Virus record (IMG/VR): IMGVR_UViG_2529292907_000022
Origin: a virus
Taxonomy: Duplodnaviria; Heunggongvirae; Uroviricota; Caudoviricetes
Length of the DNA stretch: 5,226 bases
Direction: 5' to 3' (one strand)
This document shows, piece after piece, positions 1 through 5,226 of this stretch (the stretch's first letter is position 1; the number at the start of each line of letters is the position of its first letter). A program made the translations under genes and the position numbers. The notes under the pieces are model-generated. The model worked only from the letters and a program-made list of their open reading frames with translations. It was not told where the DNA came from and made no database searches.

Positions 1-249
1 ATGCGTATTGAAATCTGCATAGCCAAAGAAAAAATGACTAAAATGCCAACCGGTGCTGTGGATGCGTTAAAGGAAGAATTAACCCGACGCATCAGTAAAC
101 GTTATGACGATGTAGAGGTGATCGTAAAAGCTACCAGCAACGATGGCCTTTCTGTTACGCGCACCGCCGATAAAGATTCAGCTAAAACTTTTGTTCAGGA
201 AACTCTGAAAGATACCTGGGAGTCTGCTGACGAGTGGTTTGTTCACTAA
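1..249 (+). CDS. DinI-like protein (DinI family SOS modulator), complete 82 aa
   Basis: ATG at 1, TAA at 247-249. Translation [82 protein letters not shown] has the DinI hallmarks as I remember E. coli DinI (MRIE..IAK start, RRI, LSV, ETWESADxWFV C-terminus) and the right length (~81 aa). Promoter and any LexA box would lie upstream of the window. Confidence 0.8.
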
Positions 250-317
250 TTAGCACGTAAAATCTGTAACGGCTGGAAATCATTCAATACTCGCACTATC
301 GAAAGTTCACCATCCAA

Positions 318-350
318 CCGCAGCACGTTCTTGCTTAAGACGTGCTGCGG
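318..350. terminator. GC-rich stem-loop between the convergent dinI-like gene and the invertase remnant; candidate terminator or structured element
   Basis: Perfect 10-bp inverted repeat ccgcagcacg (318-327) / cgtgctgcgg (341-350) around a 13-nt loop containing the palindrome cttaag. No convincing T-tract follows on either strand, so the terminator call is weak. Confidence 0.3.
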
Positions 351-379
351 CATAATCCCAATGATTACTCCCTGACAGG

Positions 380-715
380 GTTCGTAGGCCACTCAATATC
401 AGGTGCAGTTGATGTATCAACACGGTTCAGTAACACCCGATACTTTTTCTAGGCTTCCACCACCAGCACGACAAGATGCCGCATACAGTGAACCAGTCAG
501 TCCAGTTTTCAGACAACCAGTGCGTCACCTTTTTGAAGGCGCTTTAAAGCACGTTTTAATCCAGGTCGGCCTGTCCTTGTTCCGCTTAATTTATCTTCAA
601 ATATTTGTTCATATCCTGCACAAACAAGAGCGTTTCGTTGCAGATCTGTATTCTGGTCATTTGTTGATACCCTTACATAGCCAATCAGCACGCTGAATCT
701 CCCGTCCAAAAGCAC
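380..715 (-). pseudogene. Din-family serine recombinase / DNA invertase (Gin/Pin/Cin/Hin-like), disrupted remnant
   Basis: Minus-strand ORF 509-715 encodes (M)LLDGRFSVLIGYVRVSTNDQNTDLQRNALVCAGYEQIFEDKLSGTRTGRPGLKRALKRLQKGDALVV, which matches the N-terminus of Gin/Pin-type invertases including the catalytic-serine motif YVRVSTNDQ. The likely true start is the in-frame GTG at 689-691 (VLIGYVRV = canonical MLIGYVRV), preceded by gggag. The same frame continues *KLD*LVHCMRHLVVLVVEA*KKY...: TGA at 509-511 where the conserved Trp of VVWKLDRLGRS is expected, TGA at 497-499 where Arg is expected, TAG at 449-451, and further stops. Recognisable similarity fades by about position 400. The C-terminal helix-turn-helix domain cannot fit before the dinI-like stop at 249. 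Confidence 0.8.
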
Positions 716-745: not shown

Positions 746-771
746 TTATCTAAAACCTCGGTTTACAGGAA
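746..771. other. Left crossover site for the invertase (26-bp gix/pix/cix-like)
   Basis: ttatctaaaacctcggtttacaggaa: two imperfect inverted half-sites around a central tc (758-759). It differs by one base from the Mu gix sequence as I recall it (TTATCCAAAACCTCGGTTTACAGGAA). It is an inverted match (22/26, 12-bp core identical) to the site at 3743-3768 and lies about 30 bp upstream of the invertase start. Confidence 0.8.
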
Positions 772-1953
772 ACGGTAAATCAGGCTTCTGGCGCATTACA
801 GAAAAAACAGAACGGCGCAGATATTCCAGGAAAAGATACCTTCATCAAAAATATTGGGGCCTGCCGCGCATATAGCGCATGGCTGAATATTGGTGGCGAT
901 AGTCAGGTCTGGACAACCGCGCAATTTATTTCGTGGCTGGAGAGTCAGGGAGCATTTAACCATCCTTACTGGATGTGCAAAGGCTCATGGACTTATGCAA
1001 ATAATAAGGTCATTACAGATACAGGTTGCGGAAATATTTGTCTTGCAGGTGCTGTGGTGGAAGTTATTGGCACTCGCGGCGCAATGACCATACGCGTTAC
1101 CACGCCGAGCACGTCCAGCGGTGGCGGAATTACTAACGCTCAATTCACTTATATTAATCATGGTGATGCTTATGCTCCTGGCTGGCGACGAGACTACAAC
1201 ACGAAAAATCAACAACCTGCATTTGCTTTAGGGCAAACAGGAAGCACTGTCGGAAATGATAAAGCTGTTGGCTGGAACTGGAATAGCGGGGTCTATAACG
1301 CAAACATTGGTGGCGCATCGACATTAATCCTCCACTTCAATATGAATACGGGGAGCTGCCCTGCTGTACAGTTCCGCGTGAATTACAGGAACGGCGGTAT
1401 TTTTTATCGTTCAGCCCGTGATGGTTATGGTTTTGAAGCCGACTGGTCCGAATTTTACACCACCACCAGAAAACCTTCAGCAGGAGATGTTGGTGCACTG
1501 CCGTTATCTGGTGGTCAACTGAATGGTGCACTGGGTATCGGAACATCCAGTGCTCTTGGCGGTAATTCGATTGTATTGGGTGATAATGACACGGGCTTTA
1601 AACAAAATGGCGATGGTAATCTGGACGTTTATGCTAATAACGTCCATGTTATGCGCTTTGTTTCCGGCGGCATTCAAAGTAATAAAACCATAAATATTAC
1701 AGGGCGTGTTAACCCCTCGGATTACGGTAACTTTGATTCCCGTTATGTGAAAGATGTTCGACTTGGTTCACAGCAATATTATGGAGTGAACAACTGGCAA
1801 ACATGGAATTTCCAGTGCCCTTCAGGTCATGTATTGTCTGGTATTAATGTTCAGGATACAGGGTCTAACTCTGCCGATAATATAGCGGGCGTTTATTACA
1901 GACCCGTTCAAAAGTATATAAATGGCACCTGGTATAATGTAGCGAGCGTTTAA
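754..1953 (+). CDS. Silent alternative tail-fibre C-terminal (receptor-binding) cassette, Sv'-like; promoterless, starts inside the crossover site
   Basis: Frame 1 is open from 754 to TAA at 1951-1953 with no start codon until 973: [79 protein letters not shown]... It shares a near-identical core ([48 protein letters not shown]) and the C-terminal motif INGTWYN with the expressed fibre tip. Inversion at the central dinucleotides would fuse it in frame to the constant part: ...AAVIEYLGL + QETVNQ... Confidence 0.8.
1360..1436 (+). repeat. Internal inverted repeat, copy A (77 bp, perfect) within the silent Sv' cassette
   Basis: cctgctgtacagttccgcgtgaattacaggaacggcggtattttttatcgttcagcccgtgatggttatggttttga is the exact reverse complement of 3327-3403. 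Flanking sequence stays similar with mostly synonymous differences. Confidence 0.8.
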
Positions 1954-1954
1954 T

Positions 1955-2483
1955 ATGATGCACTTAAAGAACATAAAAGCGGGTAATGCTAAAACACTGG
2001 AACAGTATGAGTTAACAAAGAAACACGGAGTTATCTGGCTTTACTCTGAGGACGGAAAAAACTGGTATGAGGAAGTGAAAAACTTTCAGCCAGACACCAT
2101 AAAGATTGTTTACGATGAAAATAATATTATTGTCGCCATCACCAGAGATGCCTCCACGCTTAATCCCGAAGGTTTTTAGCGTCGTCGAGGTTCCCGATAT
2201 AACGGCCAATCGTCGGACCGATGATTCCGGTAAGTGGATGTTTAAGGATGGAGCTGTGGTTAAACGGATTTATACGGCAGACGAACAGCAACAACAGGCC
2301 GAATCACAAAAGGCCGCATTGCTTTCCGAAGCTGAATCAGTCATCCAGCCGCTGGAACGCGCTGTCAGGTTGAATATGGCAACAGACGAGGAACGCACAC
2401 GACTGGAAGCATGGGAACGCTACAGTGTTCTGGTCAGCCGTGTGGATACGGCAAATCCTGAATGGACACAAAAGCCTGAATAA
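1955..2483 (+). pseudogene. Tail fibre assembly chaperone Tfa' (Mu U'-like), split by a +1 frameshift at a T5 run
   Basis: ATG at 1955 overlaps the Sv' stop (taATATGATG). The N-terminal frame [74 protein letters not shown] stops at TAG 2177-2179. The protein continues in the +1 frame as [32 protein letters not shown]...PEWTQKPE to TAA 2481-2483, colinear with the minus-strand paralogue ([18 protein letters not shown]). The break is at ttttt 2173-2177; T4 would restore the frame. Confidence 0.7.
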
Positions 2484-2488
2484 AAATT

Positions 2489-2508
2489 AAGGCCCGCTAT
2501 CGGGCCTT
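2489..2508. terminator. Hairpin at the centre of the invertible segment between the convergent tfa genes; likely intrinsic terminator, best on the minus strand
   Basis: aaggcccg-ctat-cgggcctt: perfect 8-bp stem, 4-nt loop. It lies 5 nt after the tfa' stop (2481-2483) and 3 nt after the tfa stop (2512-2514). On the minus strand the stem is followed by aattttta; the plus-strand tail (gtctcatt) is weaker. Confidence 0.5.
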
Positions 2509-2511
2509 GTC

Positions 2512-3044
2512 TCATTCAGGTTGTTCGGGAAATGTTACTGGCAGGCTGGAGGTGTCTGTAGATTCGACTTTCTGCGCATAGAGCATCCACCCGGTTAATT
2601 TTTGTTTATTCTCGTCGGAAATGATGCCCAGCCGTAGCTGTGAGTCCCATAGCTGGGTTTTATCCCTGACAAGTTGCAACAGGCTTTGCTTTTCATTCTC
2701 TGCCTGCTGCCTCTGTTCCTCCTCGGTATAAGTTCGCTTTATCACTGCGCCATCTTTGAACATCCATTTACCCGAAATATCAGCACGGCGATTTGCTGTA
2801 ATATCAGGTAATTCAACGACGCTTGCGCCTTCCGGATTAATTGCTGAAACATCCTTTTCAATACAAATAATAACGCCGTTATGGTCATAGGCCATTTTCA
2901 ATGTGTCTGGCCGGAAATTCTTTTGTTCCTCATACCAGTTTTTCCATCATCTGAATAAAGCCATTTGATGTTAAATTGCTTTGTTAGCTGGTATTGCTCT
3001 TTTGTTTTAGGATTGCCAGCAGTAATGTTTTTTAAGTGCATCAT
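2512..3044 (-). pseudogene. Tail fibre assembly chaperone Tfa (Mu U-like) for the expressed fibre, split by a -1 frameshift at an A5 run
   Basis: Minus-strand ATG at 3044-3042, 2 nt after the fibre stop. The N-terminal frame [35 protein letters not shown] runs into junk and a TGA at 2898-2900. The rest, (W)[50 protein letters not shown]...FPEQPE, is in another frame (ORF 2512-2901). The break is at ggaaaaactgg (plus-strand ttttt 2939-2943); the intact paralogue at 2053-2063 has ggaaaaaactgg (A6). Confidence 0.7.
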
Positions 3045-3046
3045 GA

Positions 3047-5226
3047 TTAAATACTCCCCGCGTTATACCACGTCCCATTAATGCAATACTGAATTGGCCT
3101 TGCCTGAGTTGTATCAATTAATTCATCACGGTTTCCGTTAACTGAACCCGTAACGACATAACCTGACCTGTCAGACCAGCCGGGACCATTCCATGTCCGA
3201 ACAGATGACAGACCGCCAAGGCGAATACCTGTAATAAACCTTGAGTTACATTCTGCCTGCGTGTATGCACCAACATCTCCCGCAGAGGGTTTGCGGGTCG
3301 TGGTGTAAAACTCTGACCAGTCAGCCTCAAAACCATAACCATCACGGGCTGAACGATAAAAAATACCGCCGTTCCTGTAATTCACGCGGAACTGTACAGC
3401 AGGACAACTTCCTTCTCCCATATAAAAATGAATAATTAACGTTGATGCACCACTAATAGTTGCGTTATAAGCTCCGCTACTCCAGTTCCATCCAACTGCT
3501 TTATCATTCGCAACGGTGCTTCCTGTTTTCCCTAAGGCAAACGCACCAACATGACTTGCTTTTAATGTGATATCGGAGGAACCATCAAAAGCCACATTGC
3601 TTATTTTCCTGGCAGTTTTTAATTTTGCAGCTGTAGAAGCATTGCCGGATAGTTCACCAGAAAGGCCACTGCTGAATGTTTGTCGATTAGTCCAGGTATT
3701 CGCTGTACTGAGTAACGGTATTTTCTCCCCTCTTGTGCCGAGTTCTCGTAAACCGAGGTATTCGATAACGGCAGCAACGGTCGATTTCGCAAGAATATCC
3801 CGCCCGACTTTTGTCAGGGTTGCCAGGCTGGCGACATCATTCCCCGTAAAATACGGAAACTTGCCTGCCGCAGTAGTAAGTCCGGCCAGCGCCGTCAGGG
3901 TGGCATCTTTCGGTTGCTTACCCGCAAGCGCGTTAGTCATGGTGGTCGCAAAATTCGGGTCGTTGCCCAGCGCCGCAGCCAACTCGTTCAGCGTATTCAG
4001 TGCATCAGGTGACGAATCTACAAGGGCGGCAATCGCAGCCATAACGAAAGCCGTGCTTGCGATTTGGGTATTATTCGTTCCCTGTCGCGCAGTTGGCGTT
4101 GTTGGCGTTCCGGTCAGTGCAGGACTATTTAAGGGCGCTTTCTTGTTCGTTTCACCCATTACCGCCTTAACCGCTTTTGGCGTTGCCGCCAGTGACTCGG
4201 AAGTGCTGTTGGTCGCACTGCTGAGCTGTACTATCACCTTTTTCGTCGTGCTCGCATCCTCCAGCGCCACGGCGGATGCAATATCCTCTGCCCGTTTTGC
4301 TGCTGTCTCGGCGCGCGTTGCCGCGGATTCAGCAGCAACTTTGCTCTGAGATGCAGCCGTCGCACTGCCTGCCGCCTCTGATGCTTTCGTTGTTGCTGTC
4401 GTGGCACTACCTTTCGCTGCTGACGCTTGTCTGGTCGCCTCATCTTTTGAAGCAGACGCAGATGATGCCGATGACGCCGCTGAACTGGCTGACGATGCGG
4501 CTGCCGCCTTAGAGGAAGCAGCATTGTCTGCTGAAGTCTTTGCATTTGTTTCAGAGGTTTTTGCTGCAGAAGCAGACCTCGCTGCTGCAGTGGCTTGCTC
4601 AGTGGCTTTGCCAGCCTTCGTGTGGCTGTCGAAGCGGATGATGCGGCGCTTTCTGCCGATTTTCCGGCGGCGGTGGCACTGGCTGAGGCCTGCCCCGGCA
4701 CTTGTTGACGCGGCACTGGCAGATAATGCAGCCGCTGTTTTGAACCTGCCGCAGCTGAGGCGCTCTGTCCCGCTGCTGTTTCAGAAGACTTAGCGTTCGT
4801 CTCGGACGTTTTTGCCGCCTTCGCGGAATTTCCTGCCGCCGTTGCCGAGGAAGCTGCACTACTGGCACTTGATGATGCATTCGTTTCTGAAGATTTCGCT
4901 GCCTCTTTTGAGGCCGCCGCACCCCGTGCCGAGGTGGCAGCTTCTGACGCCTTCGTGGTCGCTGTGGATGCAGAAGTGGCTGCCGATTTTTGTGATGCTG
5001 CGGCATTCGTTTCTGACGTTTTCGCGGCACTGGCGCTGGTAGCTGCCGCGCTTTTTGATGACTCTGCAGCAGCAGCACTTTTTGCTGCTTCACGGGTCTT
5101 TGTCGATGCCGTTCCTGCGCTGGAAGACGCTGACTGAGCCGACGACGCGGCCTGTCCGGCTGACGTGCTGGCTGCACGTGCTGAGCCTGCAGCATCAGTC
5201 GCATGAGTTGCCGCCTCGCTGGCTGA
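3047..5226 (-). CDS. Side tail fibre protein (lambdoid Stf-like shaft with Mu S-like invertible C-terminus); 5' end outside window; frame disrupted around 4620-4745
   Basis: Minus-strand ORF 3047-4270 ends ...[12 protein letters not shown] with stop at 3049-3047. Its frame stays open upstream and carries the Stf-like stretch [41 protein letters not shown]...[31 protein letters not shown]. From 5226 down to about 4742 a different frame carries the repeat shaft ([26 protein letters not shown] and similar). The right crossover site lies inside the coding sequence at ...[19 protein letters not shown]. Confidence 0.85.
3327..3403 (-). repeat. Internal inverted repeat, copy B (77 bp, perfect) within the expressed fibre tip
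   Basis: Reverse complement of 3327-3403 equals 1360-1436 exactly. Both copies encode the shared core ...[28 protein letters not shown]... Confidence 0.8.
3743..3768. other. Right crossover site (26 bp), inverted relative to the left site, inside the fibre coding sequence
   Basis: ttctcgtaaaccgaggtattcgataa compared with the reverse complement of the left site ttcctgtaaaccgaggttttagataa: 22/26 identical, 12-bp core gtaaaccgaggt identical. It sits at the constant/variable boundary of the fibre (VIEYLGL). Confidence 0.8.
4280..5226 (-). repeat. Ala/Ser/Thr-rich low-complexity repeat region of the fibre shaft (degenerate [12 protein letters not shown]-type repeats)
   Basis: Hand translation gives runs such as [99 protein letters not shown]-rich GCN-codon composition leaves long spurious open frames on both strands. 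Confidence 0.7.

Follow-up and report, generated by a model that had tools for sequence, protein, structure and literature searches.

The stretch of DNA analysed here, which we call the window, comprises 5,226 nucleotides and is identical in sequence to the end of contig AIFW01000027.1 (76,191 bp) in the draft genome of E. coli DEC6B (GCA_000249615.2; genome announcement of the DEC collection, Hazen et al. 2012, PMC3370608). The contig ends one base past the window, within the Ala-rich part of a tail-fibre gene, and the 74-aa, 129-aa and 326-aa products of the window correspond exactly to the DEC6B proteins EHV57948.1, EHV57937.1 and EHV57927.1. Judged from its gene arrangement (Table 1), the locus is an invertible tail-fibre cassette of the Mu G-segment type, carried by a lambdoid prophage. 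In the homologous region of E. coli NCTC86 the cassette comes after lom and J of a lambdoid prophage, and the exact protein encoded by the dinI-like gene at the edge of the element is present on at least 1000 contigs.

Table 1. Features of the 5,226-nt window, with the state of the homopolymer runs in DEC6B and in homologues.
Feature	Coordinates	Strand	Remarks
dinI-like gene, intact	1..249	+	Pfam DinI, E = 1e-19; prophage edge, adjoining chromosomal yecD
Truncated Pin/Gin-type serine invertase, 68-codon ORF	509..715	-	Pfam Resolvase profile positions 2-69 of 145
gix-like 26-bp crossover site, left boundary of the invertible segment	746..771		25/26 vs Mu gix
Alternative variable C-terminal tail-fibre part (S'v-like)	754..1953	+	Open frame, stop 1951-1953
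Mu U-type tail-fibre assembly gene, 529 nt vs 528	1955..2483	+	One extra T at 2173-2177
T5 run, frameshift site 1	2173..2177	+	Homologues: T4, or CTTT or TTAT; NCTC86 homologue T4
GC-rich hairpin between the convergent chaperone genes	2489..2508		T-run on the - strand
Mu U'-type tail-fibre assembly gene, 533 nt vs 534	2512..3044	-	One base short at 2939-2943
A5 coding-strand run, frameshift site 2	2939..2943	-	A6 (GGAAAAAAC) in 5/7 homologues; GGGAAAAAC in Mu and SfMu; + strand T5, NCTC86 homologue T6
Variable C-terminal tail-fibre part (Sv), intact, now joined to the constant part	3047..3742	-	Continuous frame; Pfam gp37_C
Second gix-like crossover site, inside the tail-fibre frame	3743..3768		22/26 vs Mu gix
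Constant (Sc) part of the side tail-fibre gene, Ala-rich, leaves the window	3769..5226	-	Three further +/-1 indels
Fibre-gene indel	4621		DEC6B T, NCTC86 homologue TT
Fibre-gene indel	4693..4696		DEC6B C4, NCTC86 homologue C3
Fibre-gene indel	4738..4741		DEC6B T4, NCTC86 homologue T5

The invertible segment is bounded by two inverted 26-bp sites of the gix/pix type, contained in a 30-nt inverted repeat (I4; 742-771 and 3743-3772). The left site reads TTATCTAAAACCTCGGTTTACAGGAA and the right site TTCTCGTAAACCGAGGTATTCGATAA, to be compared with TTATCCAAAACCTCGGTTTACAGGAA for Mu gix. On the minus strand the fibre gene crosses the right site in frame (...IEYLGLRE...), and on the plus strand the frame past the left site stays open up to the end of the alternative fibre part. 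The constant part of the fibre gene lies outside the segment and two alternative, in-frame variable parts lie inside it, each of these tips being followed by its own chaperone gene, one of the U type and the other of the U' type. The S'v-like part has no start of its own, runs through the crossover site with its reading frame intact, and would join the constant part only once the segment inverts; its Pfam matches, to gp37_C and gp37_trimer, are weak. In addition, positions 1218-1497 and 3266-3545 form an inverted repeat that is 84% complementary. The hairpin between the two chaperone genes coincides with a terminator-like site and is probably a terminator, and in D108 terminators are annotated at the equivalent place.

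The invertase gene next to the segment has 68 codons, against about 193 codons in Mu Gin, and a functional serine invertase adjacent to the segment was not found. In an alignment with Mu Gin made by eye, the ORF keeps approximately the first 60 residues but lacks the C-terminal ~130 and with them the DNA-binding domain. Positions 311-766 of the window are 99.6% identical to NCTC86, where the annotation describes this gene as a recombinase without a C-terminus, and a similarly short recombinase gene is present at the equivalent place in 504239. The truncation of the pin gene is real and, unlike the homopolymer lesions described below, is common to NCTC86 at 99.6% identity; the cassette is predicted to be locked by the truncated invertase. 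Since the invertase is truncated, and the truncation is common to other strains, the prophage element is at least partly defective. By analogy with established cross-complementation, inversion in trans by another enzyme of the Pin family could occur.

Neither chaperone gene has an uninterrupted reading frame as given, which is probably an artefact. In the plus-strand gene, frame 1 runs from the ATG at 1955 to a TAG at 2177-2179 after 74 codons, ending in ...NPEGF, and the break falls in the TTTTT run at 2173-2177 (context GAAGGTTTTTAGC); deletion of one T from this run gives an ORF of 528 nt encoding 175 aa, with the conserved peptide restored. In the minus-strand gene, which starts at 3044, the frame is lost after codon 35 (...DDGK) and a stop is reached after 48 codons; here the site reads GATGATGGAAAAACTGG on the coding strand (TTTTT on the plus strand at 2939-2943), and the addition of one base gives an ORF of 534 nt encoding 177 aa that reads ...DDGKNWYEE.... 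The paralogous plus-strand gene has GACGGAAAAAACTGG, with A6, at 2051-2065. The sequence-only reading of this DNA had already placed the two breaks at these runs, with T4 as the repair of the first and A6 in the DGKNWYEE codons of the paralogue as the guide to the second, and all of this is borne out. As deposited, the plus-strand gene yields the 74-aa product and then ORFs of 81-125 aa, and the minus-strand gene yields products of 48 aa and 129 aa; the annotated 81-aa and 129-aa fragments also match the Caudo_TAP profile.

That both genes encode tail-fibre chaperones, as had been read from the sequence, is well supported by homology. The repaired products match Pfam PF02413 (Caudo_TAP) over positions 2-131 of 131 (E = 4e-36), at 124.6 bits each against a gathering cut-off of 22.1, and NCBIfam returned no family for the chaperones. 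The repaired plus-strand product aligns with Mu U (PDB 5YVQ, 5YVQ_B) from residues 1-175 to 1-175 without gaps (E = 5e-102), and the repaired minus-strand product from residues 1-177 to 1-175 of the same protein (5YVQ; E = 3e-63). The labels tfa and tfa' are arbitrary, and by homology the plus-strand gene corresponds to Mu U and the minus-strand gene to Mu U'. Each gene lies directly downstream of its fibre tip: on the plus strand the fibre stop ends at 1953 and U starts at 1955, and on the minus strand the fibre ORF ends at 3047, stop included, and U' starts at 3044. In Mu, Tfa attaches to the distal fibre through its N-terminal domain and remains part of the virion, and its conserved helical domain at the C-terminus probably drives trimerisation (PMC9608196, which summarises North et al. 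2019). By analogy with Mu, each chaperone would bind its own fibre tip via the N-terminal domain, with the C-terminal helices driving folding of the trimer.

A comparison of run lengths in homologous genes had been proposed as a check on the two breaks. We aligned each chaperone gene with seven homologues (identity 83-99.4%), namely those of Mu, D108, SfMu, P1 and three prophages of E. coli, all of which are in frame, exactly 528 or 534 nt long and free of internal stops (7/7); in both alignments the sole gapped column is the DEC6B homopolymer position. In NCTC86 and 504239 the recombinase gene at this position is likewise truncated or short, yet their chaperone genes are intact, at 528 and 534 nt.

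The chaperone genes are not the only genes of the window affected. In an alignment with its homologue in NCTC86, the window shows exactly five indels, each of a single base and each in a homopolymer (Table 1); three of them lie in the fibre gene, within 121 bp. Through these three, the frame of the fibre gene switches from 1 to 3, back to 1 and again to 3, and their repair gives one open frame of 727 codons; with all five repaired, U, U' and the fibre fragment are free of stops and of further indels. The lesions run both ways, some runs being longer and others shorter than in the homologues. The frameshifts at 4621-4741 were absent from the sequence-only reading, as were the origin of the DNA at the end of a draft contig and the locking of the cassette by the truncated invertase.

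The main alternative to sequencing error is that these are real slipped-strand mutations in a locked, decaying prophage cassette, which would make U, U' and the fibre gene pseudogenes and leave the prophage no longer able to make functional side tail fibres, or that one break is real and the other an error; we regard this explanation as unlikely. It agrees with the invertase being truly truncated, and with that truncation being common to other strains, with the occurrence of one of the events in a run of two bases, and with the E. coli annotations, which often show prophage tail-fibre and tfa genes as pseudogenes. However, once the five runs are corrected, U, U' and the fibre part (approximately 3.3 kb together) contain no nonsense mutation, no larger deletion and no IS, and NCTC86 and 504239 show that a truncated or short recombinase gene can be combined with intact chaperone genes. 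Three indels within 121 bp are also unlikely to be independent: a clustering of independent mutations at 4621-4741 is not expected, whereas the three fit a consensus of poor local quality, in a repeated gene close to the end of a contig.

An internal control is provided by aspS, which lies on the same contig, 1.5 kb to the left of the window, and which the annotation divides into two genes, of 85 and 504 aa. The split results from a one-base deletion, at about contig position 69,490, in a T7 run (A7 on the coding strand, GACGAAAAAATATT), of which DEC6B has A6. In a comparison of an 8-kb flank with two finished genomes, the aspS deletion was the one shared length difference, both finished genomes having A7, and with an 81-nt stretch of aspS as query all matching complete E. 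coli genomes (5425/5425) were below 99% identity, the matches listed being one base longer. Aspartyl-tRNA synthetase (AspRS, encoded by aspS) is essential in E. coli, so the aspS frameshift cannot be real, and homopolymers are therefore miscalled in this assembly at a distance of 1.5 kb from the window. A lesion of the type seen in the window is thus found in a gene that a living cell cannot lose, and since this neighbouring essential gene has the same type of one-base error, the breaks in the chaperone genes are most likely base-calling errors. The aspS case also weighs against slipped-strand mutation, as in that gene a lesion of the same type cannot be real.

Two other differences in the flank were considered and set aside. 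A second core gene, nudB, seemed to be frameshifted (125 aa, instead of ~150 aa for the 453-nt gene of the finished reference), but its alignment contains no indel, so the gap in length reflects only a different start-codon call. An intergenic run of A7 instead of A6 was not counted as an error, as it agrees with one of the two finished references.

Altogether, the 13.3 kb of contig examined contain six single-base indels, of which five belong to the window and the sixth to aspS, and all of the lesions are changes of +/-1 in homopolymer runs. The true lengths of these runs are 4, 6, 2, 3, 5 and 7. Were the frequency of indels simply proportional to the length of the run, at least four of six would fall in runs of at least 4 with a probability of 1.3e-4, and this concentration on homopolymers speaks for an artefact. 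Indels are somewhat denser in the window, which is prophage DNA (5 in 5.2 kb), than in the flank of core genes (1 in 8 kb), with binomial p values of ~0.04 by length and ~0.08 by number of runs of at least 4, a difference that speaks to some extent for real slippage. Such a pattern would also arise if selection were relaxed on a prophage whose invertase is dead, which counts against miscalls, and so does the event at 4621 (TT to T), a very short run that is less typical of pyrosequencing error.

In order to establish whether the lesions are inherited, we searched for them in other genomes. With 81-nt queries, no match of at least 99% identity was found among 226 records for site 1, 644 for site 2 and 3611 for the fibre cluster, and the best rows differ from the queries by exactly the gaps. 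With 31-nt queries, for which every megablast match necessarily includes the run, the T5 31-mer of site 1 was found in none of 5426 complete E. coli genomes, and the T5 state of site 2 in two of the 5426 (SCU-387 and YSP8-1), on different alleles. The SCU-387 copy shows 59 gap openings in 2.4 kb when aligned with the window, and its consensus is clearly poor. In YSP8-1, whose allele has 21 mismatches to that of DEC6B, the one-base deletion is the sole indel in the U' gene, which belongs to a degraded prophage that contains an IS1 and whose terminase is truncated. As these two carriers hold the site 2 state on different alleles, this state is recurrent and not inherited.

The YSP8-1 case, in which the same change from A6 to A5 is the sole indel of U' in a clearly degraded prophage, is what would be expected of real slippage, and it counts against miscalls, since the genome is finished and the change stands by itself. 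On the other hand, none of the 5426 complete genomes shares the DEC6B states by descent, and the lesions are private to the DEC6B assembly; this privacy is weaker evidence than it would otherwise be, because the complete genomes include no close relative of DEC6B (the closest core flank among them being only 99.0% identical).

The truncated products of 74 and 129 aa occur as complete genes in DEC6B alone. Five other places with the 74-aa product were considered as possible further sightings of the frameshift, but these are short-read contigs that end at codon 74/75 of U or, where they extend beyond it, read GGTTTTAG, that is, T4, and for this reason they are not independent sightings. The exact repaired proteins of 175 and 177 aa, which sister strains such as DEC6A, C, D or E might have shown, are absent from a collection of 15 billion proteins; the intact alleles are therefore not confirmed from a sister assembly, and the absence speaks neither for nor against them.

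We also considered whether the shifted runs could be functional, either as recoding sites or as phase-variable contingency tracts that tune the supply of chaperone. At site 1, a +1 slip at GGU UUU UAG C would give F-S-V-V, and at site 2 a -1 slip of tRNA-Lys (A-AAA-A; GGA AAA ACU) would give K-N-W-Y, in each case leading to exactly the full-length protein. In prfB a stop codon comes right after the slippery codon, and the same arrangement is found at site 1. However, the shifted state is not conserved among relatives, the seven homologues being all in frame and without length variation, and the complete genomes have the site 1 state in 0/5426 cases and the site 2 state in 2/5426. Moreover, runs of five bases are far below the known contingency or transcriptional-slippage tracts, and the identical type of lesion in aspS and in the fibre gene indicates a technical cause. 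A functional role of the shifted runs is in our view highly improbable. A variant drawn from the same codon arithmetic (a prfB-like +1 slip on Phe and a -1 slip of tRNA-Lys) would have the run lengths real and both sites leaky, so that full-length chaperones would be made at a low level, as a trickle from a locked cassette; we give this variant hardly any weight.

In our view, both frameshifts are very probably homopolymer-length miscalls in the DEC6B draft assembly and not mutations of the strain, and we infer that the indels of the window share the cause of the aspS error. The DEC drafts were presumably made by 454 pyrosequencing. The strain itself would then have T4 at 2173-2177, T6 at 2939-2943, TT at 4621, C3 at 4693-4696 and T5 at 4738-4741, and both chaperone genes, as well as the fibre gene, are probably intact in DEC6B. 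The choice between slipped-strand mutation and sequencing error, which the sequence-only reading had left open, is now tilted towards error by the aspS frameshift, the three fibre indels and the lack of shared descent.

Several entries in the DEC6B annotation are probably artefacts of this kind, namely EHV57948.1 (74 aa, "hypothetical protein"), the Caudo_TAP fragments of 81 and 129 aa, and the divided fibre and aspS genes, and the DEC6B fragments are unfit to be counted as prophage pseudogenes or as cases of fibre or chaperone loss. If the frameshifts were true, the prophage would be unable to fold either alternative fibre tip, which would amount to ordinary prophage decay. More generally, homopolymer frameshifts can be judged cheaply and without reads by asking whether any essential gene of the contig carries a lesion of their type.

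The cassette is of a known kind, a switch of the Mu G / P1 C type placed on a lambdoid side tail fibre and with a dead invertase. Its likeness to the Mu G segment includes the ~3 kb enclosed between inverted 26-bp sites (25/26 and 22/26 identical to Mu gix), the constant fibre part outside the segment, and the two variable parts with convergent chaperone genes inside it. In Mu, D108, P1 and SfMu, U and U' are 528 and 534 nt long, matching the repaired genes described here, and the DNA of the segment is 89-93% identical to that of these phages over 53-62% of its length. The repaired products align end to end with TfaMu (Mu U), but the genes as deposited encode only fragments. Unlike in Mu, the cassette is on a side tail-fibre gene of the lambdoid type, the N-terminal part of which is Ala-rich, the invertase has only 68 codons, and the chaperone genes and the constant part are frameshifted as written. 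Side tail-fibre loci of cryptic prophages, such as the e14 P segment (pinE) and the stf/tfa/pin loci of Rac and Qin in K-12, also combine tfa with a Pin-family invertase and often carry pseudogenes; e14, Rac and Qin are considered here from their general description, and the best matches of the chaperone genes are U and U' of the Mu/P1 type. The frameshifts, in turn, are most likely not a biological feature, and resemble the homopolymer errors of flow-based or single-molecule sequencing in being changes of +/-1, in both directions, in essential and prophage genes alike, clustered in repeated sequence near a contig end. None of them is inherited, the site 2 state alone recurring, in two unrelated genomes, and they differ from such errors in that one event lies in a run of two bases.

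The DEC6B contig that carries the window (AIFW01000027.1) provided a control for the two chaperone frameshifts. aspS is an essential gene, and in this contig a one-base deletion at an A7 run breaks it into two genes of 85 and 504 aa. Over an 81-nt stretch of aspS, all of the matching complete E. coli genomes (5425 of 5425) differ from DEC6B, and among the matches listed the complete-genome sequences are longer than that of DEC6B by one base. The split is a clear assembly error, and was used as the control in judging the single-base frameshifts that the sequence-only reading had noticed in U and U', the tail-fibre chaperone genes.

Three further homopolymer indels, spread over 121 bp, are found in the tail-fibre gene, where the reading frame passes from 1 to 3, back to 1 and again to 3; with the three repaired, the gene is a single open frame of 727 codons. 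These indels did not form part of the earlier finding.

Features of the window and of the compared loci
Feature	Position	Strand	Details
aspS A-run lesion	L002 (DEC6B contig locus) 6566-6572, AIFW01000027.1		lies ~1.5 kb to the left of position 1 of the window
Truncated pin/gin-type invertase	509-715		~60 Gin-like residues left
gix-like crossover site	746-771		25/26 identical to Mu gix
S'v-like ORF	973-1953		326-aa product; whole frame 754-1953
8-bp GC-rich hairpin	2489-2508		AAGGCCCG-ATAG-CGGGCCTT; between convergent U and U'
gix-like crossover site	3743-3768		22/26 identical to Mu gix
+/-1 homopolymer indels, tail-fibre gene	4621, 4693-4696, 4738-4741	-	
SCU-387 homologous invertible cassette	L016, NZ_CP051688.1 2152516-2157546		E. 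coli
YSP8-1 U' gene	L017 2087-2619, NZ_CP037910.1		E. coli

Although the SCU-387 genome is labelled "complete", its cassette shows 59 gap openings in 2.4 kb against the window, and several genes of the region carry frameshifted annotation; the assembly consensus is poor there. In YSP8-1, the A6-to-A5 deletion seen at the second window site is the only indel in U'; the surrounding prophage is a degraded remnant, carrying an IS1 and a terminase that is truncated. The YSP8-1 allele is unlike that of DEC6B, and its A5 state, be it mutation or error, is an independent occurrence.

Each of five unrelated short-read assemblies (Logan and ENA, L003-L007) has contigs ending 0-2 nt from codon 74/75 of U, which suggests a repeat boundary within this gene, where assembly graphs branch, the part downstream apparently being common to the paralogues.

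When ~15 billion proteins are clustered at 90%, the S'v-like product forms a singleton, and window 767-1217 has no match in NCTC86, otherwise the closest complete genome. The fibre tip could represent an uncommon allele; the rarity of the product may also be simply an effect of start-codon choice.

The invertase is truncated, both crossover sites are retained, and the fibre switch is locked unless another Pin-family invertase acts in trans. The truncation is shared with NCTC86 (99.6% identity). Between dinI and the pin stump, window 250-508 contains remnants that the NCTC86 annotation lists as a fragment of a tail fibre assembly protein and as a small hypothetical gene. They suggest that pin lost its 3' part in an old rearrangement.

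The hairpin separating U and U' has a T-run on the minus strand, and at the equivalent place phage D108 has annotated terminators.
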